Notes: a model not told the origin generated them from the letters alone. A stretch of 64,000 bases of DNA from an uncultured Spirochaetota bacterium (GCA_963732395.1 CAVSZF010000007.1:761571-825570); one strand, 5' to 3'; shown: positions 2,418 to 61,625, numbered from the stretch's first letter. Numbers and translations: made by a program.

Positions 2418-3773
2418 GTGATGGACGACACCATCTGCGCTCCCTCAACCCCGCCTGTTCAATCCTCTATCGCAGTAATCCGCATCAGCGGCCCAGGTAC
2501 ACTAGGCGCCCTTGCTTCCATATTCAGCAGGGCGGAGGAACTGGAGCCGCGCCGCGCCGTATACGGAATTATTCACGACGGTGAAAAGCCGGTCGACGAT
2601 GTGGTGGTCGTATCCTACCGCACGCCGGCAAGTTATACAGGCGAGGATATGGCGGAACTGTCATGCCATGGCAATCCACTCATTGTGGGGGCCGTCATAC
2701 GGCTGTTGAACCGCCATGGCGTCAGGCTTGCGGAACCGGGAGAATTCACCCGGCGTGCCTTTCTGAACGGCAAGATCGACCTCACCGGCGCGGAAGCAAT
2801 CAATCATATCATTTCTGCGAAGAGCGAGTGGGAGATTGAGACCTCCCTCCGGCAGATGCACGGGTCACTGAGGGAAATCATTAACGGGATAAGGCGCCAG
2901 ATCACCGAATTGAAGGCGGACATCGAGGCCGCCATTGATTTTCCCGGGGAAGAGATCGACGGGATATTCACCGGAAAAGCCCTCCGCGAATCTGCGGGCA
3001 TCCTTACGGCTCTTGAGGATCTCCTGGGCAGGTGCCGATCGGGCGAGCGCCTTTGCCGCGGAATCGATATCACCATCACTGGCAGGCCGAACGTAGGAAA
3101 ATCGAGCATATTGAATCTACTCCTCAATCGGGAGCGGGCTATCGTAACCGGGATACCGGGGACCACCAGGGACGTGATTCGAGAAACCTTCCAGATCGCC
3201 GGCGTTCATGTCAACCTGATCGATACCGCCGGTATCGACACGCCGGGTGACGAGATCGAGAGGATCGGCATTGACCTGAGTAATCGCCATATCGAGTCCT
3301 CGCACTATATCATCCTCGTCCTCGATGTACAGGCGGGCCTGCTTGATGCCGACCGGGCGCTCCTTGAAAAGACGAAGAACAAGAGCAGGGTTATCCTCAT
3401 CAACAAGATCGACATCGCGGGGGCCGGCGACGTTGAACGCATTCGGGAAGCCCTGTCCGAGGATGCGATATCTTTCTCCGCAAAAAAAGGCCTGGGGCTG
3501 AGCGAATTGAAAGAAACGCTCGGGCGCAAAATACGGGAAGAGTTTTCCGCGGCGGAGGACAGCTTCATCGCCGATGTCCGTATCACCGGTCTTCTTGAAG
3601 AGGCGGTACAAGCGGCATCCCGGGCGGGTCGTCTTATCGGGGATGAAGGGCCTGCAGAGATCATCGCCTTTGAACTTCAATCGCTTATGGAAGCTTTATC
3701 GGAAATAACAGGGGAAATAACGCCTGATGACGTGTTGCATTCGATATTCAGCAGGTTCTGTATTGGCAAATAG
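2418..3773 (+). CDS. mnmE: tRNA modification GTPase MnmE (TrmE)
   Basis: 451 aa. G-domain motifs (GRPNVGKSSILN, DTAGI, NKID). C-terminal FCIGK tetrahydrofolate/Cys motif typical of MnmE. Confidence 0.9.
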   Translation: MMDDTICAPSTPPVQSSIAVIRISGPGTLGALASIFSRAEELEPRRAVYGIIHDGEKPVDDVVVVSYRTPASYTGEDMAELSCHGNPLIVGAVIRLLNRHGVRLAEPGEFTRRAFLNGKIDLTGAEAINHIISAKSEWEIETSLRQMHGSLREIINGIRRQITELKADIEAAIDFPGEEIDGIFTGKALRESAGILTALEDLLGRCRSGERLCRGIDITITGRPNVGKSSILNLLLNRERAIVTGIPGTTRDVIRETFQIAGVHVNLIDTAGIDTPGDEIERIGIDLSNRHIESSHYIILVLDVQAGLLDADRALLEKTKNKSRVILINKIDIAGAGDVERIREALSEDAISFSAKKGLGLSELKETLGRKIREEFSAAEDSFIADVRITGLLEEAVQAASRAGRLIGDEGPAEIIAFELQSLMEALSEITGEITPDDVLHSIFSRFCIGK

Positions 3774-3836
3774 GGATGGGGACAAACAATTCGTTGACGT
3801 ACTGGATAATTTTATTATCTTGTAAGTGCAATAAGA

Positions 3837-3865
3837 TTGACATTTCATCGGCGAATGATGATACT
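3837..3865 (+). promoter_or_regulatory. Sigma70-like promoter: TTGACA, 17 bp spacer, GATACT
   Basis: TTGACA at 3837-3842, 17-bp spacer, GATACT at 3860-3865, about 30 bp upstream of ATG 3897. The track's TTG start at 3837 coincides with the -35 hexamer, which argues for the 3897 start. Confidence 0.4.
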
Positions 3866-3896
3866 TATCTGCCTCCTGCAGGCATGGGTTATTCAT

Positions 3897-5690
3897 ATGG
3901 ATAAAGACAAACTCGACAAAACCAAGAAGAATATCGGTGTGACGAATATGGACGAGCAGACCAGAAAGAATCTGTTCGAAAAATTTGTGGACGGCGGGGG
4001 AAAAGTGATCGATGAAAAGGCCGCACGAAAGCGGCTTACAATCGATCGTGAAAAACAGAAACAGTTTCTCAAGAAAGCGGAGATCCATGCGAACAGGGGA
4101 AGAAGGGTAGAAAAACAGAGACAGGTCGATCAGAAGCAGGTCGTACAGCAGCGTCCCCCCGCGACTGGCGACATTGGCCCACTGGCCCTCTTCTTCAACA
4201 GGTTGAAACTCAGAATAAAGCTGAAGACTTCCGGTGTGGCAGGCTTCAACGGCTATTTTTTCGATGCACGGTTTTTCAAGAAATTCAATAACACTTACAA
4301 GCCCGCAATGATGGAGTTGCAGATACTTTTTCTCGAGATATTCAGAAAAAGTCCCGCCACAGGAAGGGAGATTACGTCCCGACTTGACAAGATCAAGCCG
4401 CTCTATTATGAGCTGATCGAGATGATCGGAAATCTTTTTGACAAAATCATGGCCGATCAGATCGTCGAGCAGTACATCAATTTCCCGGAAGTCCCGAAAA
4501 AAACAGGAGAGTTGAAGGGACAGATATTGCTTCTGTATAAAAAGCTGCATCTCCTGAGCCGGTATGAGCATTCAATTCTTTCTGCATTCGAAATGGCCAT
4601 CGATCTCTACCTGAAGAAAGGTGAAAAATCATCGGATTCGTTTTCATCCATGAGGAAAAGTGCCCGCAACGATCTATTCGTGGTGTTTCATAAATTATAT
4701 CCGCGTCTCCACCTGCTTTTTTGTCTATATCAGTGGAGACTATACCCTCAGTCTGATCCCGCTATAGACGGGATTCTCGGCGTATTGGACGAAGAAAAAC
4801 CGGGGAACAGGCAGCTGGAGCGGTATTTTGAGGAGAGTTCAGTAACGGTAACGGGACCGGAGAATACTGAGGCGGACGAGGAATTGGAAAAGCCTGATGA
4901 CGCAAGGGCGAAGGCCTTGCGAAAGGGATTGGAATTGATGTCCATGATTGATTTTGCCAGGCTTAGAAAGGAGTATGACCGGACGCGCCTTTTCGAAAAT
5001 GTGGGTGAAGGAGACAAGGTGTTTCTCACTTACCTTCTGTTCAACGAATTCGACAGAGAATACTCGTTCATACTGACCACGAGTAAAATTAAGTTCAGGA
5101 CTGATTTTATCGCACGCACAAAGATTGATTTCAGATCGAGGCTCAACGTCCTGTACGATAGAATGAAAAAGAGCAGTGACGGCCTCAAGGAATACGCGGA
5201 AGAGCTGGGGAGCTATGAAAAGGCCCGCCGGGAAAAACCCTCGAGCAACGCCCAGTACATCGAGTTTACGAAGAGGATGGAATCCTTCGAGAAAAAAAAG
5301 ACCGCGGCGGGGAAAAACGCCCTTGCAATGGTACGCCAATATATGACCGAGGTGGCTGAAGAGCTCGCGTTGCTAATGGATGACATGGACGGTAATCAGA
5401 TATATGTCGAGAATCCCCAGGAGGAGATCGTATTCGATACCCTTATCGAAGGGGAGAAAAAGCTGAACGGGAAGAAGGTATTTGAGGCCATCCATATCGC
5501 TTATTCGTATGCCTTCGCCTTCGCAAGCCGCTTGAGTCAGGGAGGAGACCTTTCCGGCGATCTTGAATTTAAGAAAGAGGAGCTGGATGAGCTCAGGAAG
5601 CGGATGGAAGAACAGGCCGCTATGGCGCGTGAGGAATCCGAGCGTGAAGAAAAAAAATCGGTACTGGAAGAACTTGACGATATGCTGTAA
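3897..5690 (+). CDS. Hypothetical protein, highly charged (K/E/R-rich), coiled-coil-like, no recognisable domain
   Basis: Long ORF with a consistent coding look and no motif I can name. Start moved from the track's TTG (3837) to ATG 3897 because of the promoter call. It occupies the slot after mnmE where mnmG/rsmG are often found. Confidence 0.6.
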   Translation: MDKDKLDKTKKNIGVTNMDEQTRKNLFEKFVDGGGKVIDEKAARKRLTIDREKQKQFLKKAEIHANRGRRVEKQRQVDQKQVVQQRPPATGDIGPLALFFNRLKLRIKLKTSGVAGFNGYFFDARFFKKFNNTYKPAMMELQILFLEIFRKSPATGREITSRLDKIKPLYYELIEMIGNLFDKIMADQIVEQYINFPEVPKKTGELKGQILLLYKKLHLLSRYEHSILSAFEMAIDLYLKKGEKSSDSFSSMRKSARNDLFVVFHKLYPRLHLLFCLYQWRLYPQSDPAIDGILGVLDEEKPGNRQLERYFEESSVTVTGPENTEADEELEKPDDARAKALRKGLELMSMIDFARLRKEYDRTRLFENVGEGDKVFLTYLLFNEFDREYSFILTTSKIKFRTDFIARTKIDFRSRLNVLYDRMKKSSDGLKEYAEELGSYEKARREKPSSNAQYIEFTKRMESFEKKKTAAGKNALAMVRQYMTEVAEELALLMDDMDGNQIYVENPQEEIVFDTLIEGEKKLNGKKVFEAIHIAYSYAFAFASRLSQGGDLSGDLEFKKEELDELRKRMEEQAAMAREESEREEKKSVLEELDDML

Positions 5691-9106: not shown

Positions 9107-10164
9107 TGTTCCCGTCGGTTGGCGCCGGGCCGAATCAATTCGCTCAGCCAGGATCCGGCTATTTCAGCCGCAACCATGCTTCCGTACAGGTTCCAGTGGG
9201 GATCGTTACGCTGATTGAAGATGCGACGATCGAAGCGCTGTCTTTTCTTGAACCCATCCAGAAGGTTGAGAAAGGGGATCCCCATGCCTGATAGTTCCTC
9301 ATGAAGCATTCCGTTCAAGGTATAAAAATCGTACTCGTCTGGATTCCCGCCACGTCGCGCAATCGCATTGTGCCGCGCTTCCGGATAAAGTTGCACATCC
9401 GCCGGGCACGCTACGACGACCAGTGCGACACCCCTGGCATTGCATATCTCCCTCATCCTCCGGACAATTGAAAGGGAGCTTTCAACGTCCCTCCTGAAAC
9501 CGTGGTTTCCTTTGTGGAATAGATTCAATTGAGTATCGACGAGAAAGTGAATGTAGGCGTCATTATTCCGGATGAGTGTGTCATCGCGATAGGTGCCGGT
9601 GCCAAAAACTTTTCCGTCTGGTTCGATGCGGTTGACGATGAAGGCGTGCAGGAATGTGGCGGCCGCCGAGCCGTAGTGAAGACGTTTGCGCGTCCCGCCC
9701 CTGTTGAAATCGTCGCCGAGGAATAGAGTCAGAAGCACCATGTCCGGATGTAAACGTAACCCTTCGTTGATCAGTATCGAGAGATAGTCGATGGGGGCCG
9801 CGGAGGGCACGCCGAGGTTATAGATCTCGACATCCGGAACTGACCGGCGGATTTCCTTCCCGAGAAGGAATACATAGGTGCGTTGATAGGGGACGGCTCC
9901 GTATGTCTGTGAATCGCCGATGGCGATGATCCTGAAAACATCCGGAGGTTTTATTTCATTGAACTCGACGTCCTTGAATCCGCGGGAGTTGAGCCTGAAG
10001 CCGTTGAATTCGAGCGAATTCGGTCTACCCCGGTATTTGAGGTAGGTGCCGTCAGGCATGATGGCGAATCCTGGATTGCAGCGTCCGTAGATGCGAAGTG
10101 ACAGTTCTAGCACGGCGAGGCAGATGATTGGGATGAGAAGGGCGATAACTACGTGTTTTTTCAT
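9103..10164 (-). CDS. SGNH/GDSL-family hydrolase (AlgX/AlgJ-like), secreted or membrane-anchored
   Basis: N-terminal TM/signal sequence. GDS-type catalytic block IIAIGDSQTYG. C-terminal DPHWN block. Start set at the second Met (MKKHVV), which has a GGAG RBS 6 nt upstream. Confidence 0.7.
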   Translation of the reverse strand: MKKHVVIALLIPIICLAVLELSLRIYGRCNPGFAIMPDGTYLKYRGRPNSLEFNGFRLNSRGFKDVEFNEIKPPDVFRIIAIGDSQTYGAVPYQRTYVFLLGKEIRRSVPDVEIYNLGVPSAAPIDYLSILINEGLRLHPDMVLLTLFLGDDFNRGGTRKRLHYGSAAATFLHAFIVNRIEPDGKVFGTGTYRDDTLIRNNDAYIHFLVDTQLNLFHKGNHGFRRDVESSLSIVRRMREICNARGVALVVVACPADVQLYPEARHNAIARRGGNPDEYDFYTLNGMLHEELSGMGIPFLNLLDGFKKRQRFDRRIFNQRNDPHWNLYGSMVAAEIAGSWLSELIRPGANRREH

Positions 10165-52957: not shown

Positions 52958-53653
52958 CTATTTGCCCCCGTAAGCCCCCTTCAGTTCGGCGAGCTTACGC
53001 TTTTTTGCCTGTATGCCCCCCAGATAACCGGAGATTATTTTACCAAAATCCGTTTCACCGGTTATGACCTTTTTCCTTTCTGTTTCGATATAGCCCAGAT
53101 CGGTGGTGACCCGTATGCTGCTGGCCTTTCTCGCATACTCCCTGACTCGATCCCAGTAGGGAAGGGCTTCGCGGTAATGGGTATCGGCGATATCGAGGCT
53201 TTCGGATAGTTCCTCAGCGTAGTCCCAGTGGTAGAAACGGATATCCCTTTTGTCGTAACGGGCCGCGATTTTCAGGTAGTTTCTCATGATCAGCATGTTG
53301 ATATGCATGAACATGAGATTGCGGTATTTCAGATATTCCTCCTCCGATTCTACTTTAACGAGCGCCATGGAGGGATGGCGAAACCTGCAGTTGAGGGAGG
53401 TTTTCAGACGCGCGATGTTCATCCGCAATGAGTTCTCATTGTAATACTGCTTCATTCCATAGAGCTGGTAGTAGTCTTCGAGATAATGGGGCACGGTCTG
53501 GTAGTGAAGGCGTACGCGAGGAATGTAATCGGAAAAGGGGACATGCTTCTCCTTTTCCTTTTTTTTACTGAAATAATCATATTCATAATCCTCCCCGTTC
53601 AGGGGCAGGATTATCGCGAGGAGCAGTGTGATTATCGTTGCGATTTTTTTCAT
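52958..53653 (-). CDS. Secreted hypothetical protein
   Basis: Start at MKKIATIITLLLAIILPLNG, a signal peptide. Tyr/Glu-rich mature part with no motif. Confidence 0.55.
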   Translation of the reverse strand: MKKIATIITLLLAIILPLNGEDYEYDYFSKKKEKEKHVPFSDYIPRVRLHYQTVPHYLEDYYQLYGMKQYYNENSLRMNIARLKTSLNCRFRHPSMALVKVESEEEYLKYRNLMFMHINMLIMRNYLKIAARYDKRDIRFYHWDYAEELSESLDIADTHYREALPYWDRVREYARKASSIRVTTDLGYIETERKKVITGETDFGKIISGYLGGIQAKKRKLAELKGAYGGK

Positions 53654-53806
53654 CGGGATCGGCTCTTTGTACGGTGCGGTGTCATGCGAAACCGCTATAG
53701 AATGATTATCGGCAGGAGGCACCGGTTTTTTGACGGTTTAACCCAGTGAATCGGCAGCATGCTCATTTTTTACGGTCCGGCGCAGGGAATAATGGTGAAA
53801 CTATTC

Positions 53807-54652
53807 TCACGGTCGGGTATAATCCGAGAAAAATAGCTCGATGTACTTGCGAAGGGATTGGACAAACTCGAGCTTGATGCCTGTCTCGACGGCCCAGGAG
53901 GATTTCGGGAATACCTTTAGATTCGCGGAAAATGTTTTTTCAGCCCGGATAAGATGTTCGTACGCCATGTCAAGCTTGAAGTATCCGCGATTGTGCCGAT
54001 CGTAAAAGATTTCCTTACCTGCGATCGTGAGGTCTTCATCGCCCTGCTTGTATATGCGGTATGCCTCAACGTCGTACTGATTGGCATATGAATCGATGAT
54101 GTTGAGGCATTCCGATGCCCTGTAAAAATTGATGAGCATGACGGTAAAGACCTCAAAATGCTCGATAAGCTCCGGGTCGTCGGTCAATCTGGCGAGACGA
54201 TGTATTGCGTGATATGATTTTCTGAGAGCGAACACGATTTTGTTGAAGATGGCTCGGTTCGCCACCTTTTCCCGAATCGTCAAGCGATAGAGGGAGTACT
54301 GATAATAACGGTAAAGGGAGTCCTTGGCGCCCTCGCGATGATTGATGAATTGTCCGGTAAGGACTTCAGAATCTACAACCGTTTTCCCGGCTTGGGGCGT
54401 GGTCTTCTTTTCCTCTGGCGGGGGCGGGCCCTCAGACGGGCGAATCGACTCGGTCCTGAAACGATGGCTCATTACCGCAGAGTAAGCGAGGTTGATCTGT
54501 GTCATCGCCTCAGTCGCCCATTCAACGCGGTGCGGGTTTTTATCAGGATGGTATCTGAGGGCAAGCTTTTTATACGCGGCGACGATTTCATCGTCGGTGG
54601 CTCCGCCGCCTATGCCAAGAAGGTTATAATGGCGCTCGATGTCAGTGATCAT
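53807..54652 (-). CDS. J-domain (DnaJ N-terminal domain) protein with unique C-terminal region
   Basis: N-terminal J domain with HPD motif (DDEIVAAYKKLALRYHPDKNPH), a Pro-rich linker, and no DnaJ zinc-finger or C-terminal domains. Confidence 0.7.
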   Translation of the reverse strand: MITDIERHYNLLGIGGGATDDEIVAAYKKLALRYHPDKNPHRVEWATEAMTQINLAYSAVMSHRFRTESIRPSEGPPPPEEKKTTPQAGKTVVDSEVLTGQFINHREGAKDSLYRYYQYSLYRLTIREKVANRAIFNKIVFALRKSYHAIHRLARLTDDPELIEHFEVFTVMLINFYRASECLNIIDSYANQYDVEAYRIYKQGDEDLTIAGKEIFYDRHNRGYFKLDMAYEHLIRAEKTFSANLKVFPKSSWAVETGIKLEFVQSLRKYIELFFSDYTRP

Positions 54653-54987: not shown

Positions 54988-55017
54988 TTGACATATATAC
55001 TAATGTATGCTTATTGT
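54988..55017 (+). promoter_or_regulatory. Candidate sigma70-like promoter of lexA
   Basis: TTGACA at 54988-54993, 18-bp spacer, TATTGT at 55012-55017. The spacer contains the ATACtaatGTAT short palindrome. I could not confidently identify a LexA box. Confidence 0.35.
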
Positions 55018-55052
55018 ATGTTTATATTGAGATAAGATTGGGGGTTGGTGAA

Positions 55053-55673
55053 ATGGCGCGGAAACAGACGGTAAGACAACTGACCACCAAGCAGGAAAAT
55101 ATTCTTGAGTTTATAAAGAAATCGATAAAAGGCGACGGGTTTCCCCCAACGGTCAGGGAAATCGGTGACAGATTCAACATTACGGTCAAGGGCGCCTATG
55201 ATCATGTCAAGGCCATCGAGAAAAAAGGCTTTATAAAAATGGAGCAGAATAAATCACGCGCCATTGTGATCTTGCATGAGGAAAATGAAACCCCGACGGA
55301 CGCAATCAATATTCCTCTCCTTGGAAGAATCGCAGCCGGATCTCCCATTCTCGCGGCTGAAAATGTCGAAGAGTATCTGAGTTTTCCGCGTACGATGTTT
55401 AAAAGCGGGGACTTTTTCGCCCTTCATGTAAAGGGCGATTCCATGATCGAAGGCGGAATCAATGACGGCGACATCGCCGTGATAAAAAAACAGAATACCG
55501 CTCAAAACGGCGACATAGTCGCCGCGCTTATCGAAGAGGAGGCCACTCTGAAACGGTTTAAAGCCGCGGGGGGAAAGGTCCACCTTATACCGGAGAACCC
55601 AGCGTATAAACCGATTATCACTACCGATGTGGCCATTCTGGGGAAGTTGACCGCCATATTCCGACGGTACTGA
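55053..55673 (+). CDS. lexA: LexA repressor
   Basis: N-terminal winged HTH. Ala-Gly autocleavage site (RIAAGSPILA). S24 peptidase Ser/Lys dyad (GDSM ... K). About 206 aa from ATG 55053. Confidence 0.9.
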   Translation: MARKQTVRQLTTKQENILEFIKKSIKGDGFPPTVREIGDRFNITVKGAYDHVKAIEKKGFIKMEQNKSRAIVILHEENETPTDAINIPLLGRIAAGSPILAAENVEEYLSFPRTMFKSGDFFALHVKGDSMIEGGINDGDIAVIKKQNTAQNGDIVAALIEEEATLKRFKAAGGKVHLIPENPAYKPIITTDVAILGKLTAIFRRY

Positions 55674-55724
55674 AACAATTCCTTCCGAAAATAAAAACTT
55701 ATCATACCAGTACTCATTTTATCA

Positions 55725-55753
55725 TTGTATCCTGGCGGCCCGTGCCGTATAAT
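55725..55753 (+). promoter_or_regulatory. Sigma70-like promoter upstream of the TPR-CHAT gene
   Basis: TTGTAT at 55725-55730, exact 17-bp spacer, perfect TATAAT at 55748-55753. About 130 bp upstream of ATG 55888. Confidence 0.45.
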
Positions 55754-55887
55754 TCAATAAGGGTGTGCGGTCATAATGGACCGACCCTTTACGGGCGCGC
55801 AAGGGGATACTGGACGGCGGCTGCGGGATAATCATGACGGATTGTCCGCACATCCCGCCCGTGGATGGCAAAAGGGGGGACAGGATA

Positions 55888-58782
55888 ATGGCAAAGAGAA
55901 TTCTCATGCCGGGCATATTGCTCCTTGCCTGTACGGTCGGTTTTTCCAATCAGTGGCATGATGAAGCCGATCGATTCTGGAACGAGGGCCAGAAGCTGAA
56001 GAAGGATTTGAAATACAGGGAGGCGATACAATTCCTGCGAAGGGCCGTGGCTGCGGAGATGAAAAACGAGAATCCCCGCGCTGATGAATTAATCGCTCAG
56101 TTCAACGAGCTCGGCATTCTATATGGCATGACAGGTTCCTTCGAGAGCTCTCTGCACTACCACCAGATGACCCTTAAGGCGGCCGAAAAATACGGGAGGG
56201 AAGATGATGAGGTGATGGCGCTCATCAATATCGGAAGGGTCAGCACCAACCTCGGGCGGCACCGGGAAGCCATTGACATCTATGGCCGGGCGCTGGAGAG
56301 GTCCAGGAAGTACGGCTTTGGGGACAAGGAGGTGCGTGTCCTGAACGATATGGCGGGAGCCCTGAGGGCAATGAATGATTTCGAAGGAGCCCTTGCGCGC
56401 TATACCGAAGCCCTCGATGCCGCGAAGAAGGCGGGGGGTGCGGTGCTGGAGGCGGCGATCATCAGCAATATCGGTACGCTCTATTTTTTCAGGGGGGATT
56501 TCGAGACCGCCCTGAAGGAATACGGTAGAGCTCTCGACATCGACAAGTCAAGGGGGGACGACATGGCCCTTTCCATAGGCATGAACAATATGGGAAGCGT
56601 GTATACAGCCATCGGAAAGTATGGGGAGGCCCTCAACTATTTTGAGAAATCGCTGGAAATCGACACCAGGCTGAAGAATGGCATCAACATCGCATCGCGT
56701 TTAAACAGGATAGGGGATATCTACTTCCGTGTCGGAGACGGCGCAAGCGCGATTGCGCATTTTAACCGATCTCTCGAAATCAACAACAGGATCAACAACA
56801 GGATCAACGTGGCGGTGCTGAACGCCAGCATCGGGCGTGTGTACGAGTCGATGGGCAGGTTCGAGGAATCCATTGATTATTACATAAAGGCACTCGCCCT
56901 AAACCGGGAGTTGGAAAAGGAAACCTATGTGGCCGAGCGATTGTCAGATATCGGTCTCCTTTACGAAATGCGTGGAAGGCACGGAGAGGCTGCCGATTAC
57001 TTTGCAAGGGCGCTGGAACGGGGAATCGGCACCGGAGGGAAGGAAAAGACAGCGGCGAACCTGAGCAACCTGGGACGTGTGATGACGGCGTTGAAGCGCT
57101 ATGATGTCGCGCTCGATTATTTTCGGCAGTCCCTGGAAATCTATCGAGAGACGAAGGATTCCATCTCGATTGCCGACGACCTGAAGAATTGCGGGATTGT
57201 CCACTACCATCGGAAGGAGTGGGACCTGGCGATCGACAGCCTTCTACGGGCGAGGGGCTCGATTGAGGGGACGCCCCGGACGATCTATCCGGTCAGGGAC
57301 GAGGTCGAAGGCGAGATGTACCGCTGGCTGGTCGCCGCGTATGTAATGTCTCAGAGACACGAGATGGCATTCGAGGCGAACGAACGGTTCTGCATTAACC
57401 GAATGTACTCGCCAGTTCATACCTGGAAACCGGCAGGGCCGGACCCTGCGGCCGGCTATGACAGGCTCAAGGACCGACTAGGGGCCAGCGGGGCGGCGGT
57501 GGTTTATTCGAATGTCTCCTGGGACGACCCACAGGTTGTCTGTATCAGGCGTGAAGGATCATCGGGCCATGTGCTGGACAAAGCCGCAACGGTGAAAACG
57601 ATATACAACCATTTTGGCCGCGAGATTGAACGCTTCATGGGGGAAAAAAAGACCGATATTATTTTCACAGTAGGACAGAGGTCGCGAAGCGATCATTATT
57701 ACATAGAGTTTGAAAAAATAATCAATTACTACCGGTATCTGGCCTCGAAAAAATATATCGGGAGCGATGAAAAGGATGCTTTGCGTCGCATCGGGAAGGC
57801 CCTCTACGACCTTCTTTTGGGAACAATCGGCCCGGCAATAAAAGGAAAGACGGAACTGATCATTCAGCCGGATGGCGTCCTTTCCACCCTGCCATTTGAA
57901 ACCCTGATCATGCCGGATGGAAGATTTCTCGTCGAGAAGTACATTATAACCTACGTGCACTCCCACACCATAAGCGCAGCCGCGGCGAAAAGAAAATACA
58001 ATGCCGGGAGGAAAGAACTGATGCTGATCGGCGGTGTCACCCATCCGTCAAAATCACTTCCCGGAGTCCTCGAATCGGTCCGGCACTATGAGCTCGTTAA
58101 ACAGAGAGCCGTCGATGCCATCATGAAAGGGAGGGACACCATCGGGCTGTACGGATTTTTCGGTATAGATGACATCGGTGGTCCCGGCGGCGACATAAAG
58201 GAAATCGAGTTACTGGATGGCGCCTGGAAGAACCATGACATACTCAGGGACGAGGACGTCACCGAGGGCGGGATACTGGGCGCCTCTCTCGCGGGGGCCT
58301 TTTCCGGGTACAGGATTCTGCATGTCGCCACGAGATCCGTCGTGGTTCCGGAGGCGCCGATTCTGAGCGCGCTGGTGCTCTCCAGCGAAAAGGGTGTTTC
58401 AGGTGGGAATGGCCTGCTGAATATCAGAAAAATCGCCTCTCTTAAGATAGCGGCCGATCTTGTGACCCTGTCGAACGTATTCCTGCCGCCTGCGCGTTAC
58501 AGCAAGGGGGAGGGAATATGGAGCCTCTGCGGTTCTTTCATGGATGCGGGAGCTCGGAACGTGGCGATATCGATCTGGCCTGTCGAGGGAGCGGTAAAGA
58601 TGGCACTCATAAAGCGGGCGTACCGCCTTGCACTGGAGGAGAAACTGCCCTACTGCAGTGCCTTTGCACGAGCGAAACGCGAGTTCATTACTCAAAAAGC
58701 CGATGACAGTTCCCCGGGTGGGAGTCCGGGGAACTATTCTTCCCCCTATTTCTGGGGATCTTTCATGCTGTATGGATACTAG
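55888..58782 (+). CDS. TPR-repeat / CHAT-domain (caspase-like) lipoprotein
   Basis: Start at MAKRILMPGILLLACT (lipobox). About 12 TPR-like repeats. C-terminal CHAT-like fold (LHVATRS...DLVTLSNVF...SLCGSFMDAGARNVAISIWPV) with the expected His-Gly and Cys positions apparently occupied by Arg-Ser and Asn. Confidence 0.8.
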   Translation: MAKRILMPGILLLACTVGFSNQWHDEADRFWNEGQKLKKDLKYREAIQFLRRAVAAEMKNENPRADELIAQFNELGILYGMTGSFESSLHYHQMTLKAAEKYGREDDEVMALINIGRVSTNLGRHREAIDIYGRALERSRKYGFGDKEVRVLNDMAGALRAMNDFEGALARYTEALDAAKKAGGAVLEAAIISNIGTLYFFRGDFETALKEYGRALDIDKSRGDDMALSIGMNNMGSVYTAIGKYGEALNYFEKSLEIDTRLKNGINIASRLNRIGDIYFRVGDGASAIAHFNRSLEINNRINNRINVAVLNASIGRVYESMGRFEESIDYYIKALALNRELEKETYVAERLSDIGLLYEMRGRHGEAADYFARALERGIGTGGKEKTAANLSNLGRVMTALKRYDVALDYFRQSLEIYRETKDSISIADDLKNCGIVHYHRKEWDLAIDSLLRARGSIEGTPRTIYPVRDEVEGEMYRWLVAAYVMSQRHEMAFEANERFCINRMYSPVHTWKPAGPDPAAGYDRLKDRLGASGAAVVYSNVSWDDPQVVCIRREGSSGHVLDKAATVKTIYNHFGREIERFMGEKKTDIIFTVGQRSRSDHYYIEFEKIINYYRYLASKKYIGSDEKDALRRIGKALYDLLLGTIGPAIKGKTELIIQPDGVLSTLPFETLIMPDGRFLVEKYIITYVHSHTISAAAAKRKYNAGRKELMLIGGVTHPSKSLPGVLESVRHYELVKQRAVDAIMKGRDTIGLYGFFGIDDIGGPGGDIKEIELLDGAWKNHDILRDEDVTEGGILGASLAGAFSGYRILHVATRSVVVPEAPILSALVLSSEKGVSGGNGLLNIRKIASLKIAADLVTLSNVFLPPARYSKGEGIWSLCGSFMDAGARNVAISIWPVEGAVKMALIKRAYRLALEEKLPYCSAFARAKREFITQKADDSSPGGSPGNYSSPYFWGSFMLYGY

Positions 58783-58784
58783 AA

Positions 58785-59306
58785 ATGGACAGGGCAATGA
58801 GAAGGACCGCCCTTGTCGATTCATCATCCGCCATAATTCTTTTCAAAGCGGGTCTCTTCGAATATACGGCGGAGTATTTCCGCATCGTAATCCCCGCCTC
58901 GGTTTTCGAAGAGCTGACAGTCGGGGGGCGCTCGGGGTCGGAGGAATTCGCGCGATACCGTGCGGACGGGAGCATCCAGGTCAGGGATACGGACCCGTTA
59001 TTGACGGTCGAAGGGGATATGGGCGGTCTTGACACAGGGGAGCGGGATACCATCCTCCTTTACGAAGCGGGATCGGGGGAAGTGATACTTCTCGACGACG
59101 GGAAGGGGGCCGCCATCTGCAGGCGCCGCCGCATACCCCATATCAACGCCCTGCTTGTTCCCAGGATATTTCGCCGGGCCGGCACTATCAACGTAGAGGA
59201 ATGCGAGCGACAGATGGCCACCATTATGATCCATGGCAGGTATTCCGATTGGGTGGTCGACTACGCCCGATCATGCCCGGATGACGACCTCGCGGATTTT
59301 GCGTGA
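58785..59306 (+). CDS. PIN-like nuclease-fold protein, DUF3368/COG2405 family
   Basis: N-terminal ALVDSSSAIILFKAG and central GERDTILLYEAGSGEVILLDDGKGAAICRRRRIPHINAL match the DUF3368 pattern (D...GE...LLDD). Starts 2 nt after the CHAT stop. Confidence 0.65.
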   Translation: MDRAMRRTALVDSSSAIILFKAGLFEYTAEYFRIVIPASVFEELTVGGRSGSEEFARYRADGSIQVRDTDPLLTVEGDMGGLDTGERDTILLYEAGSGEVILLDDGKGAAICRRRRIPHINALLVPRIFRRAGTINVEECERQMATIMIHGRYSDWVVDYARSCPDDDLADFA

Positions 59307-59327: not shown

Positions 59328-61625
59328 TTATACGGCCTGAATGATCTCCGGGTGGATCTCACCAATCGACGCGCAGCCTGTCAGGATCATGGCCGTCTCA
59401 ATCTCTTTTTTTAAGTGATTCAGGTAGAAGGAAACACCCTCGGCGCCCATGCCGACCGCGGCGATGGCAATGGGCCTACCGATCAATACGGCGTGCGCTC
59501 CGAAGGCCAACGCTTTCAGAATGTCCACACCCTCACGAAATCCGCCATCGACAAGAATTATCAGGTCGTCCTTCACTTCTCTCGCGATCTCTCCGAGTAC
59601 GTCCATTGATCCCATCATTTCATCGAGGACCCGACCGCCGTGGTTTGAAACGATGATGCCCCTTGCCCCGAGACGTGCGGCTGCCTCTGCATCATGGACG
59701 TTCATGATACCTTTTAGAAAGAAGGGGAGGGAAGTCGATGAAATGATGTCCCTGAGATCGGAAAAGCTCTTCGGTCCTACCGATTGATTCTTCATCGCCA
59801 TGGTCTTGAATACCACGGCGTCGATGTCCATGCCGACGGCGAGAGCACCCGCTTCCTCGGCCGCCCTGACGCGGGTGATTATTTCATCATTGTCACTGCG
59901 GGGCTTGAAGATGGGAATGCCCCTGCCCCCGAATTCAGAGATCGCACGAAGGCCGATCCTGTACTTGTCGGGAGTAGCCCCGTCCCCCACAAGGGCCAGG
60001 GTCCCGGCCCGGGAGCAGCCGCCGACAACCGCACGGTTGTAATCGAGTTCGTCGATGGCGCCGCCCATGTTTGTTACGGTTCCCGTGATAGGCGCGGCCA
60101 GAACCGGGAGGGCCAGATTGATATCGAGGAGCGTCGAGGATGTATCGGGTCTGGTGACTTCATGGATGAGGCGTGTCCGAATTTTATATTGCTTGAGGGA
60201 TGCAATATTGCGGCGGAATGACTCGCCGGTACCGGCACCACCCATGCCGGGCACTCCCGTGGGGCAGTCACGACCGTCGCAGTTCTTGCACACATAACAG
60301 ATTTTTTTGAATTTCTCCTTGGCAGAGAAATTGATGGTTTCCAGGGATATCTCCGATTCCTCGATCATGTCGAATTCAAGAATACGACGGCATTCCTCAA
60401 CATGTGCCACCGCCTCATCGAGGGTTTGACCCACGGCAATGATATGACCGGCTTTCTCGACGTTGGAGCGGGGGAGGGAAACTCTGTCTCCCTGCCTGAC
60501 GTTGAGAAAAATTTCCTCTATGCCGGGGACCTTCAGCGCCTCCTCGAGACCGGTGATTTTTCTCACGATGCCGGGTCTTGTGATGATCGCGCGCTCGATG
60601 GCGACACGTTTCATGACCGGCTCAAGATTTCCGGGTTCCTGTCCGAGTGCGACCTCAATGGCCGCCTTCATCAGGTCAACCCCTGTGGAAAGCGGGTACG
60701 TGTAGGCCGACATGAAACCGCCGGAAAGTCGGGCCGCTATTTCGCCTACCATGGGGCCCTTTTCGGTTATCTTGATGTCCCCCTTCGCGGCTCCGATATC
60801 AATTCCGAGGGCCCGAATGCCCTGTTTCATCACCTCGCATGCCGCGGCCTGCACCTCGCGCGGCAGTGCGGAGGGCATGTCGTGCCCCGTTTCAATGAAG
60901 TAGGGGGGATATTCGATAATCCGGTCCGCGATTCCTGTGATGGTAATTTCATTCTGGTATATGATGGCATCGATGGACAGCTCCGCGCCCTCCATGTATT
61001 CTTCCATGATCAGCTCGCCGCTGGGAGAGGCATTTTTGGCGAACTTGAATGCGTCAGGGAGCTGGTTCAGATTATCGACACGCATGACGCCCCGAGCCCC
61101 CATGTTGTCCGATGGCTTGATGACTATGGGAAACTTTAAAATTTTTCCCGCTTTTTTTGCATCGGAAAGCGACCAAACGGGAAGAAAAAGGGGCGATGGT
61201 ACGCCATGCTCTTTCATACGCATTCTCATCTTGATCTTGTTGGTGGCGGCCTCGGCGTCGTCGAACTTTATGCCCGGGAGGTCGAGGGTGTTGGCCACGG
61301 CGGCGACCGCCATGGAGGCGTCGGTCCCGACGGTGAGAACTGCGCTAATGGGTGTAATCTCGTTCTGTTGCCGGGCAGCGCGTACGGAACCCTCAATGTC
61401 GCGGGTACTCATGATGATGGGAATATCGGCGTCCCTGATGCCTAGCACATCCGGGTTATAGTCGCTCACTATGACCTGGTACCCCATCTTTTTCGCAGTG
61501 AGGATCGCGGGAAGCTGGAGAAGCCCGCCGCCGATTATCATGATTGTCTTTTTCAATTCCGGCTCCTCGTCAGGGCGGCCCGACGGCGCGGTGCCTGGGG
61601 GTTGGTGTGCTGCCGTAAAGATCAT
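59328..61625 (-). CDS. Fusion protein: ATP-grasp ligase domain + Cx2Cx2Cx4C linker + FMN-dependent alpha-hydroxy-acid dehydrogenase/oxidase-like TIM barrel
   Basis: N-terminal ATP-grasp (KKMGYQVIVSDYNPD, FPIVIKPSDNMGARG, EEYMEGAELSIDAI). Cys cluster CYVCKNCDGRDC at 60264-60299. C-terminal FMN_dh motifs (IVSNHGGRVLD, ILVDGGFREGVDILKALAFGAHAVLIGRP). An alternative start at 61541 (MIIGGG) is possible. Confidence 0.8.
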   Translation of the reverse strand: MIFTAAHQPPGTAPSGRPDEEPELKKTIMIIGGGLLQLPAILTAKKMGYQVIVSDYNPDVLGIRDADIPIIMSTRDIEGSVRAARQQNEITPISAVLTVGTDASMAVAAVANTLDLPGIKFDDAEAATNKIKMRMRMKEHGVPSPLFLPVWSLSDAKKAGKILKFPIVIKPSDNMGARGVMRVDNLNQLPDAFKFAKNASPSGELIMEEYMEGAELSIDAIIYQNEITITGIADRIIEYPPYFIETGHDMPSALPREVQAAACEVMKQGIRALGIDIGAAKGDIKITEKGPMVGEIAARLSGGFMSAYTYPLSTGVDLMKAAIEVALGQEPGNLEPVMKRVAIERAIITRPGIVRKITGLEEALKVPGIEEIFLNVRQGDRVSLPRSNVEKAGHIIAVGQTLDEAVAHVEECRRILEFDMIEESEISLETINFSAKEKFKKICYVCKNCDGRDCPTGVPGMGGAGTGESFRRNIASLKQYKIRTRLIHEVTRPDTSSTLLDINLALPVLAAPITGTVTNMGGAIDELDYNRAVVGGCSRAGTLALVGDGATPDKYRIGLRAISEFGGRGIPIFKPRSDNDEIITRVRAAEEAGALAVGMDIDAVVFKTMAMKNQSVGPKSFSDLRDIISSTSLPFFLKGIMNVHDAEAAARLGARGIIVSNHGGRVLDEMMGSMDVLGEIAREVKDDLIILVDGGFREGVDILKALAFGAHAVLIGRPIAIAAVGMGAEGVSFYLNHLKKEIETAMILTGCASIGEIHPEIIQAV

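Follow-up and report, generated by a model that had tools for sequence, protein, structure and literature searches.

Three co-oriented genes, for the SOS repressor LexA, a TPR-CHAT protein and a PIN-like protein, follow one another closely in the genome of an uncultured Spirochaetota bacterium, and we asked whether this order reflects a common function. A sequence-only reading of the same stretch (GCA_963732395.1 CAVSZF010000007.1:761571-825570; 64,000 nt, hereafter the window) had proposed a stress- or defence-linked cassette of a protease and a nuclease. Our analyses favour, with a probability of roughly 0.7, three functionally separate genes, the juxtaposition of CHAT and PIN being a matter of lineage-specific synteny and not the mark of an effector pair.

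The lexA promoter and the lexA–CHAT spacer

The three ORFs previously read from the sequence were all found on the plus strand: lexA at 55053–55673, the TPR-CHAT gene at 55888–58782 and the PIN gene at 58785–59306. The domain calls made for them (LexA, an exported TPR-CHAT fold and a PIN-like nuclease) were right, and the spacing of 2 nt between the CHAT stop codon and the PIN ORF is present as described; the N-termini of PIN homologues line up with a second ATG, at 58797; a start there would make the protein 169 aa long and the gap to the CHAT gene 14 nt. The CHAT gene has lexA, the PIN gene, a J-domain protein gene and an ATP-grasp/FMN-dehydrogenase fusion as neighbours, with housekeeping flanks, and no defence neighbourhood was seen around the three genes. 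GC content is uniform (0.49–0.58 over the CHAT and PIN genes versus 0.42–0.59 over the 14 kb profiled), with no compositional island at either gene in this profile. The claim that no CRISPR, cyclase or antitoxin is present was borne out: the 64-kb window gave 0 Rfam matches of any kind, no repeat array and no tRNA, and no conserved small ORF was found upstream of the PIN gene.

The lexA product (206 aa) is a canonical SOS repressor by its sequence, with winged-HTH and S24 peptidase domains. It matches TIGR00498 at 220 bits (cutoff 111; 2.1e-65) as well as PF01726 and PF00717, and carries the Ala-Gly cleavage site (AAGSP from residue 94) and the Ser/Lys dyad motifs, GDSM from residue 128 and LKRF from residue 166. 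The promoter (54988–55017, plus strand; −35 TTGACA, 18-nt spacer, −10 TATTGT; 10/12 in the promoter scan) contains a candidate LexA operator with an AC-N4-GT core, ATATACTAATGTATGC (54995–55010), and all 13 lexA promoters of the lineage have such a block in this position. LexA probably represses its own gene via this putative palindrome between the −35 and −10 elements. A PWM derived from the 13 lexA operators had its sole match in the 64-kb window at 54994; the pattern AWACN4GTWT occurs three times in the window (2.0 expected), the other two matches lying inside ORFs, and no second SOS gene with a candidate box was found there. In locus L070 the operator block, CTATACCAATGTATAG, equals the LexA1 SOS box of Leptospira interrogans, CTnnACnnnnGTnnAG (PMC4756842). 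The two systems share a canonical LexA and a lexA-promoter palindrome with the same AC-N4-GT core, although in most loci here the outer positions of the candidate site (ATA[AT]AC..GTATGC) deviate from the Leptospira box.

The TPR-CHAT gene had been credited with a good promoter of its own. Its elements are present on the plus strand (55725–55753, read in the sequence), with TTGTAT at 55725–55730 and TATAAT at 55748–55753 separated by 17 nt, but ‘good’ is an overstatement: the −35 element agrees with TTGACA at 3/6 positions and the consensus promoter scan did not list the site. A LexA box was looked for in the spacer between lexA and the CHAT gene (55674–55887) and none was found, though every lexA promoter has one; nor is an AC-N4-GT box conserved in the orthologous spacers. 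Neither box nor PWM searches placed a LexA operator at the CHAT promoter, which speaks against SOS control of the CHAT and PIN genes from that site. There is also no terminator-like hairpin in 55674–55887, so that SOS-dependent read-through from lexA into both downstream genes is possible.

The TPR-CHAT protein and the loss of its catalytic dyad

Earlier described as a 965-aa TPR-CHAT lipoprotein, the product does have TPRs, a CHAT domain and an export signal, but its length is 964 aa (TAG stop) and its lipidation is uncertain. TPR_12 matches in six stretches (4.7e-70), the TPRs spanning residues ~25–470 (Pfam), and the CHAT profile PF12770 covers residues 634–963 (1.2e-34). Foldseek searches with the AlphaFold model (pTM 0.85) matched Csx29, DdvA and separase (E 4e-13 to 1e-8), and the matches of the CHAT fold include gingipain as well. 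The TPR region matched only function-unknown families in PHROG, and against PADLOC the protein matched generic TPR models only.

We compared the window protein with nine lexA-linked TPR-CHAT orthologues and with an outgroup of nine TPR-CHAT relatives. Its signal peptide comprises residues 1 to ~20, with Cys15 in LLLAC, and the mature part starts from NQWHDEADR; a hydrophobic N-terminus followed by conserved NQWHDEADR was found in all nine orthologues. Export of the protein is supported by these predicted signals. The window N-terminus, MAKRILMPGILLLAC, is compatible with a lipobox and the protein may be lipidated at Cys15, the motif being LLLAC in the window and LLIAC in L006; in the other orthologues position −1 is V, L or C, with a conserved A/S-NQW that is a possible signal peptidase I site. 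Outgroup proteins P0041 and P0044 have signal peptides too, and adjoin ECF sigma/FecR/PEGA or DUF4384 genes.

Both catalytic residues of the CHAT domain are replaced. In the MAFFT alignment the column of the catalytic His holds Arg816 in the window (codon 58333–58335, plus strand; HVATRS compared with HFATHG in active relatives), and that of the catalytic Cys holds Val864 (codon 58477–58479, plus strand; LSNVFLP compared with LSACETG). The His is present in 9/9 outgroup proteins and in none of the 10 lexA-linked proteins, which have R, K or A instead; the Cys is likewise found in 9/9 and 0/10 respectively, with V, T, I, L or a gap in its place. The outgroup proteins keep HFATHG and LSACETG at 21–36% identity, and the nine orthologues are intact ORFs of 963–985 aa with 27–57% identity over the C-terminal half. 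Among the orthologues the CHAT half is still 26–55% identical (32–65% for the TPR half), indicating that it is retained and is not decaying. The profile and the caspase-like fold would both suit an active CHAT cysteine protease, but as both catalytic residues are lost the 964-aa protein is not expected to act as one; most likely it would have a non-catalytic binding or scaffold role in the cell envelope. The clade has a conserved Cys of its own, C881 in IWSLCGS, 17 residues past the lost catalytic Cys, and given this residue an unconventional active site may exist. The new element here, of modest novelty, is an exported TPR-CHAT clade without the dyad.

Two known proteins share this architecture. 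Csx29 of the type III-E craspase has a TPR solenoid joined to a CHAT domain, and among the Foldseek matches to the C-terminal half its structures 8d9f, 7zoq and 8eey rank highest (E 4e-13 to 3e-11). The window protein differs from it in having no His-Cys dyad, in being predicted to be exported and not cytoplasmic, and in its sequence (identity ~10–12%). A type III-E craspase can be set aside, as Cas7-11/gRAMP and Csx30/31 are absent among the CHAT gene's neighbours and there is no CRISPR array in the 64 kb. DdvA is an extracytoplasmic TPR-CHAT protein with a structural match at E 3e-10, but in DdvA H862 and C907 are retained, and a transmembrane helix and a cytoplasmic zinc anti-sigma domain are present; the window protein, by contrast, lacks the dyad and carries nothing more than a cleavable or lipobox signal. 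A DdvA-type anti-sigma factor was rejected, since the mature TPR part begins after just ~20 residues and no sigma-70 r2/r4 (ECF sigma) gene is adjacent.

The PIN-like protein and its neighbours

The 173-aa product of the third gene was assigned to the COG2405/DUF3368 type of solitary PIN-like nucleases. The window protein itself matched nothing in Pfam and NCBIfam (hmmscan) even at E ≤ 10; the earlier DUF3368 PIN-like call is nonetheless supported by PF11848 in its homologues, the PIN fold and the conserved acidic residues. A precomputed PF11848 match is held by 33/36 homologue clusters, one of them 99% identical to the window protein, and the model (pLDDT 92) has PIN domains as its best Foldseek matches (1o4w, 3h87, 2hww and 5h4g). 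D12, E43, D104 and D105 do not vary across 36 sequences and E86 is kept in at least 90% of them, which together with the fold provides the acidic residues of the PIN-like superfamily (strand 1 Asp, helix 2 Glu, strand 4 Asp/Asp). From the model and these residues the protein is probably a metal-dependent nuclease. No signal peptide was found in the PIN protein, in contrast to the CHAT protein with its export signal, and the two are therefore predicted to occupy different compartments, with the nuclease in the cytoplasm.

The subfamily consists of standalone proteins of ~170 aa (238 clusters at E ≤ 1e-30). In size, PIN fold, acidic site and PF11848 matches of homologues it resembles COG2405/DUF3368 (PF11848) and the VapC group, and in PADLOC the window protein matches PDC-S70, with PDLC05071 at 3.6e-11 and three further PDC-S70 models down to 1.6e-5. 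Typical COG2405 members are predicted toxins encoded beside a transcription-factor-like antitoxin (PMC5499597), whereas the subfamily described here has no conserved upstream partner and sits among housekeeping genes. A search for same-strand ORFs of 35–130 aa ending ≤45 nt from the PIN start revealed no conserved small antitoxin-like ORF upstream of PIN in 80 loci; the sole cluster of upstream ORFs (four members) is apparently the upstream PALP (CysK-like) gene read out of frame. A VapBC-like type II toxin–antitoxin system was rejected on the lack of a cognate small antitoxin gene next to PIN in these loci.

These 80 PIN loci, fetched from other genomes, also served as a survey of gene neighbourhoods. 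The lexA–CHAT–PIN order recurs in eight other genomes, but this conservation does not extend beyond a single syntenic spirochaete lineage, CHAT lying directly upstream of PIN in 8/80 loci. lexA lies ≤10 kb from PIN in 12/80 loci, all of them in Spirochaetota with a wider shared synteny (J-domain protein, c2, ATP-grasp/FMN-dehydrogenase fusion and glpX); it is upstream of PIN in 12/12 of these related loci and, with the window, on the same strand in 13/13 lineage genomes. The 68 PIN loci outside the lineage showed no pairing with CHAT and no lexA within 10 kb. In L004, which is nested among CHAT-bearing genomes, the CHAT gene is deleted to an 88-aa remnant and PIN is intact, and in L070, L051 and L067 CHAT is absent and PIN kept. 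lexA and PIN have been neighbours for longer, and more persistently, than CHAT and PIN. Where both CHAT and PIN are present their spacing ranges from a 20-nt overlap to a 12-nt gap in every genome, and co-transcription is therefore probable, which would be compatible with a functional link; the PIN gene is probably co-transcribed with whichever gene lies upstream. Elsewhere its neighbours include genes for a CysK-like PALP enzyme, a hexapeptide transferase, UbiA, Prs, TetR, a nitroreductase, RadC, a signal peptidase and NUDIX.

Relations among the three genes

Some observations sit uneasily with three separate genes: the tight CHAT–PIN spacing, C881, the lack of a terminator after lexA and the listing of the PIN protein among PADLOC defence candidates.

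Given the persistence of lexA upstream of PIN, these two genes may be the true pair, with PIN as the damage-induced end of the lexA transcription unit and the TPR-pseudoCHAT gene as a passenger inserted or lost; in a less likely version LexA itself would be the transcription-factor partner of a toxin-like PIN protein. We consider this pairing unlikely. Same-strand order throughout the lineage favours it, as do the lack of a terminator-like site after lexA in the window and the reported location of COG2405 members beside transcription-factor genes (PMC5499597). In L051 and L067 the lexA–PIN gap is 9–28 nt despite a different downstream gene, which encodes an HDOD protein and not the ATP-grasp fusion, and in L028 the PIN gene follows RadC. 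From the persistent adjacency and these short gaps, putative SOS read-through into the PIN gene from the lexA promoter is possible. However, lexA–PIN adjacency is no better kept than the synteny with the J-domain protein and c2, and may be inertia; the two tolerate between them a gene of ~3 kb that has a promoter of its own; in L070 they are separated by an opposite-strand tRNA-like gene; and none of the 68 loci outside the lineage has lexA near PIN.

The PIN gene could instead be a single-gene anti-phage system unrelated to either neighbour, as its PDC-S70 matches and its standalone, antitoxin-free occurrence might suggest. PDC-S70 is a single-gene PIN candidate that emerged from guilt-by-embedding and is described as unvalidated (PMC12988326). 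The neighbours in the 80 loci are metabolic or housekeeping genes and not defence islands, the position of PIN is syntenic across the spirochaete lineage, its composition is native and the protein matched no PHROG family, all of which make this an improbable explanation.

The cassette proposed from the sequence, in which a TPR-CHAT protease and a PIN RNase act as a Csx29-like pair under SOS control, has in its favour the Csx29-like fold, the 2-nt gap, the co-occurrence of both genes in nine genomes and the PDC-S70 matches, but is very hard to reconcile with a dyad missing in 10/10 clade members, an export signal on one partner only, generic PADLOC matches of the CHAT protein, a CHAT promoter lacking a LexA box, housekeeping flanks, and a pairing that is limited to one lineage and broken within it by CHAT loss (L004) or absence (L070, L051 and L067). 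Separate genes with lineage-specific synteny also agree with the relatives of either partner, which are unpaired elsewhere: three loci of catalytically intact CHAT relatives have neither PIN nor lexA as a neighbour, and ECF sigma/FecR genes are found beside intact relatives of the window protein.

Domain content of the lexA, TPR-CHAT and PIN-like genes

The first of the three genes, lexA (55053–55673, + strand), encodes a canonical LexA; the protein scores 220 bits against TIGR00498 (cutoff 111), matches PF01726 and PF00717, and has all of the expected motifs (the AAG cleavage site, GDSM and LKRF). The second (initiating at the ATG of 55888 and terminated by a TAG whose last base is 58782, + strand; a longer ORF opens at 55834) encodes a protein of 964 amino acids with six stretches matching TPR_12 (4.7e-70) and a CHAT domain (PF12770, residues 634–963, 1.2e-34). 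For this protein PADLOC returned generic TPR models only, and searches of the TPR region against PHROG matched only families of unknown function. A perfect 12-nt tandem repeat, ATCAACAACAGG, is present in 2.5 copies in the TPR region (56779–56808) and codes for a repeated NNRINNRIN.

The third gene (58785–59306, + strand) begins 2 nt past the CHAT stop and encodes a protein of 173 amino acids that matched nothing in Pfam or NCBIfam, even at E ≤ 10, and no PHROG family. PDB sequence searches with this protein and with the CHAT half yielded nothing meaningful, although fold searches did succeed. Its designation as PIN-like is based on precomputed PF11848 (DUF3368) matches in 33 of 36 homologue clusters; a match to the PADLOC PDC-S70 models at 3.6e-11; conservation of acidic residues in an alignment of 36 sequences (D12, E43, D104 and D105 invariant, E86 nearly so); and an AlphaFold model (pLDDT 92, pTM 0.87) whose best fold matches in the PDB are the PIN domains of AF0591, VapC toxins, SMG6 and Nob1. 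Profile matches, alignment and fold evidence together confirm the presence and domain typing of all three genes as given in the sequence-only reading.

The PIN-like family consists of standalone proteins of approximately 170 amino acids (238 clusters at E ≤ 1e-30). COG2405/DUF3368 is a VapC-group cluster described as potential toxins of toxin–antitoxin systems (PMC5499597); the 173-amino-acid protein appears to belong to this cluster but lacks the antitoxin that defines such a module, as a conserved small ORF upstream of the PIN-like gene was looked for and not found. It also matches PDC-S70, an unvalidated single-gene defence candidate (PMC12988326). Given that this solitary family sits stably among housekeeping genes and, in one lineage, invariably comes after lexA, caution is needed in counting PDC-S70 matches as immunity genes.

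Loss of the CHAT catalytic dyad and predicted export of the TPR-CHAT protein

Outside the lexA-linked clade, the closest relatives (public proteins P0040–P0049, 21–36% identity) have the motifs typical of CHAT, HFATHG and LSACETG, at which the window protein has HVATRS and LSNVFLP. Ten clade members (the window protein, eight orthologues from loci fetched from other genomes and public protein P0039) were aligned with nine outgroup sequences using MAFFT. The catalytic His column holds H in 9/9 outgroup sequences and R, K or A in 10/10 clade members; the catalytic Cys column holds C in 9/9 of the outgroup, and none of the 10 clade members has it (V, T, I, L or a gap). In the window these positions are R816 (nt 58333–58335, +) and V864 (nt 58477–58479, +). 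The protein therefore fails the catalytic features that define CHAT proteases and, by this alignment, appears to be a member of a conserved pseudo-protease clade. A caveat on this assignment is a conserved, clade-specific cysteine, Cys881 (58528–58530), 17 residues past the lost catalytic Cys; it lies in a (S/N)LCGS/A motif (IWSLCGS in the window) found in all 10 dyad-less members, the catalytically intact relatives having GLTQS at this position.

The C-terminal 510 residues were modelled with a pTM of 0.85, and the model matches Csx29/craspase, the periplasmic anti-sigma factor DdvA and separase; the CHAT fold is thus predicted to be kept despite loss of the dyad. The nine genes that represent the clade in the window and the fetched loci all have intact reading frames, 963–985 amino acids long, with orthologue identities of 26–55% over the CHAT half versus 32–65% over the TPR half, and the CHAT domain is still under constraint. 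The large protein is alike in architecture and fold to both Csx29 and DdvA, but the defining partners of craspase, Cas7-11 and a CRISPR array, are absent from the locus. What defines DdvA is an ECF sigma factor partner together with an anti-sigma domain and a transmembrane helix (PMC11506125); the window protein has neither the domain nor the helix, and its gene has no ECF sigma neighbour, on which grounds a DdvA-like anti-sigma role was rejected.

At the N-terminus of every orthologue a short charged segment precedes a hydrophobic stretch, after which comes a conserved NQWHDEADR. The protein had been described as a lipoprotein: export is well supported by the conserved hydrophobic N-terminus, but lipidation is not, as the LLLAC of the window protein fits a lipobox whereas position −1 is V, L or C in several orthologues. 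Signal peptides were also found in outgroup proteins P0041 and P0044, the genes of which lie in envelope-type contexts (ECF sigma/FecR/PEGA genes, or DUF4384 and further TPR genes). Because the CHAT orthologues carry an export signal and a signal sequence is absent from the PIN-like protein, different compartments are predicted for the two products. This exported clade in uncultured Spirochaetota would be an example of a caspase fold kept as a non-catalytic envelope component.

Conservation of gene order around the PIN-like gene

Relatives of the PIN-like protein were scanned in one genome per GTDB species, giving 80 loci distributed over Spirochaetota, Desulfobacterota and SAR324, and locus content was determined by tblastn and ORF clustering. 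The order lexA–CHAT–PIN was found in eight loci (L001, L002, L003, L005, L006, L010, L013 and L034), and lexA followed by PIN without CHAT in four (L004, L070, L051 and L067); neither lexA nor CHAT was found near PIN in the other 68. L004 has a CHAT remnant of 88 amino acids in which the signal peptide and, at the C-terminus, YFWGS are preserved, and in L051 and L067 the gap from lexA to PIN is just 9–28 nt. In L070 an unusually long tRNA-like gene of 89 nt (9817–9905, −; ARAGORN Cys, anticodon GCA) lies between lexA and PIN on the opposite strand, at the place occupied by CHAT in other genomes.

Wider synteny is common to 13 lexA-linked genomes, including the window, and comprises glpX and three further genes. 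A J-domain protein of 281 amino acids (53807–54652, −; only an N-terminal PF00226), divergent from lexA, is present in 12/13; the c2 protein of 254 amino acids (52958–53722, −), with an N-terminal hydrophobic segment and no Pfam or NCBIfam match, is present in 13/13. The third is a 765-amino-acid fusion of an ATP-grasp/L-amino-acid-ligase module (PF13535, PF18603) with an FMN-dependent dehydrogenase (PF01070); its gene (59328–61625, −) is convergent with PIN, syntenic in approximately 13 spirochaete loci, and adjoins PIN also in L028. L028, a spirochaete MAG locus without lexA, has in addition a RadC/JAB-domain gene (3630–4298, +; PF04002, 2.6e-41) 29 nt upstream of PIN. The public proteins at 99% identity, P0001 and P0037, come from a 3.6-kb contig of entry E4G96 ('Chrysiogenales bacterium'), a label that is probably wrong since every relative with this synteny is a MAG of Spirochaetota or Leptospirales.

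A neighbour-joining tree of the 170-amino-acid PIN protein gave no resolution at depth and was replaced by a tree of concatenated LexA, J-domain and c2 proteins. This placed L004 within the CHAT-bearing core clade, indicating secondary loss of CHAT, and L070 beside the CHAT-bearing L034; CHAT may have been gained once in the lineage, or may have been ancestral with three subsequent losses, as the tree fits either history. Elsewhere PIN neighbours a CysK-like PALP enzyme, a hexapeptide transferase, UbiA, PRPP synthetase, TetR, a nitroreductase, RadC, a signal peptidase or a NUDIX protein. Given its distribution (8/80 loci, in a single lineage), the loss or absence of CHAT where PIN is kept, and the varied neighbours of PIN elsewhere, CHAT–PIN is a lineage-restricted and dispensable juxtaposition; lexA–PIN is the persistent relation in the spirochaete lineage. 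A horizontally acquired island was rejected on conserved synteny and uniform GC content (0.49–0.58 over CHAT and PIN versus 0.42–0.59 in the 14-kb profile, which shows no island signature), and no Rfam family, tRNA or repeat array was found in the 64-kb window.

A candidate LexA operator and possible control of the locus

The block TTGACATAtAaACtaATGTATGCTTAT is common to 13/13 lexA promoters; a single AC-N4-GT palindrome in it lies between −35 and −10 and corresponds, in the window, to the candidate operator ATATACTAATGTATGC (54995–55010). Its core is that of the Leptospira LexA1 box CTnnACnnnnGTnnAG, derived by ChIP-seq (PMC4756842), the consensus of which is matched perfectly by the L070 site CTATACCAATGTATAG. 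The search for further sites used a PWM of 20 nt, a degenerate palindrome of 12 nt and AC-N4-GT by itself. The PWM, built from the 13 candidate lexA operators, had its sole match in the 64 kb at position 54994; the 12-mer AWACN4GTWT occurred three times versus 2.0 expected by chance, and the two occurrences besides the candidate operator fall inside ORFs. AC-N4-GT does not occur in the lexA–CHAT spacer (55674–55887), nor is any such site conserved in the orthologous spacers, and by this criterion the CHAT promoter appears to be no direct LexA target. The promoter proposed for CHAT, TTGTAT-17-TATAAT (55725–55753), is present in the sequence, but its −35 agrees with consensus at only 3/6 positions and it was not listed by the promoter scan.

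We consider it likely (probability roughly 0.7) that these are three independent genes: lexA would be autoregulated, the TPR-CHAT protein would be an exported scaffold without catalysis, and the PIN-like nuclease would be solitary, cytoplasmic and co-transcribed with whatever gene lies upstream. The main surviving alternative, which we regard as unlikely, is that lexA and PIN form an SOS-controlled unit, with PIN (COG2405/PDC-S70) last in the lexA transcription unit, induced for DNA-damage or prophage-linked cleavage of RNA or DNA, and a dead, exported TPR-CHAT inserted into or lost from the operon. No terminator-like hairpin was found 3′ of lexA, so read-through from the lexA promoter could occur, and because PIN comes after lexA throughout one lineage, SOS control is simple to test. 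The protease–nuclease stress or defence cassette of the sequence-only reading is unsupported, as the dyad is lost, the compartments are predicted to differ and the pairing is lineage-restricted. A 'CHAT + PIN' neighbourhood can thus resemble a conflict system without being one; here it was the checks on catalytic dyad, cellular compartment and neighbourhood phylogeny that removed the defence reading.

Two other conserved elements flank lexA. The block AAACTTC(T/A)CTTTAC(A/T)TTCT lies in the lexA–CHAT spacer, approximately 25–45 nt past the lexA stop in L001–L006, L010 and L013; the window (~55697–55715) keeps AAACTT alone, and L004 keeps the block though its CHAT gene is deleted. Within the CHAT promoter, the block probably serves as the −35 region or as a site for a regulator; an ECF-type −35 was considered, but the spacing to any −10 is unconvincing by eye. 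The second element, TGT(A/T)TAGAT (55018–55031), comes directly after the lexA −10 in 12/13 loci and may mark the region where transcription starts or be a second half-site of the operator.
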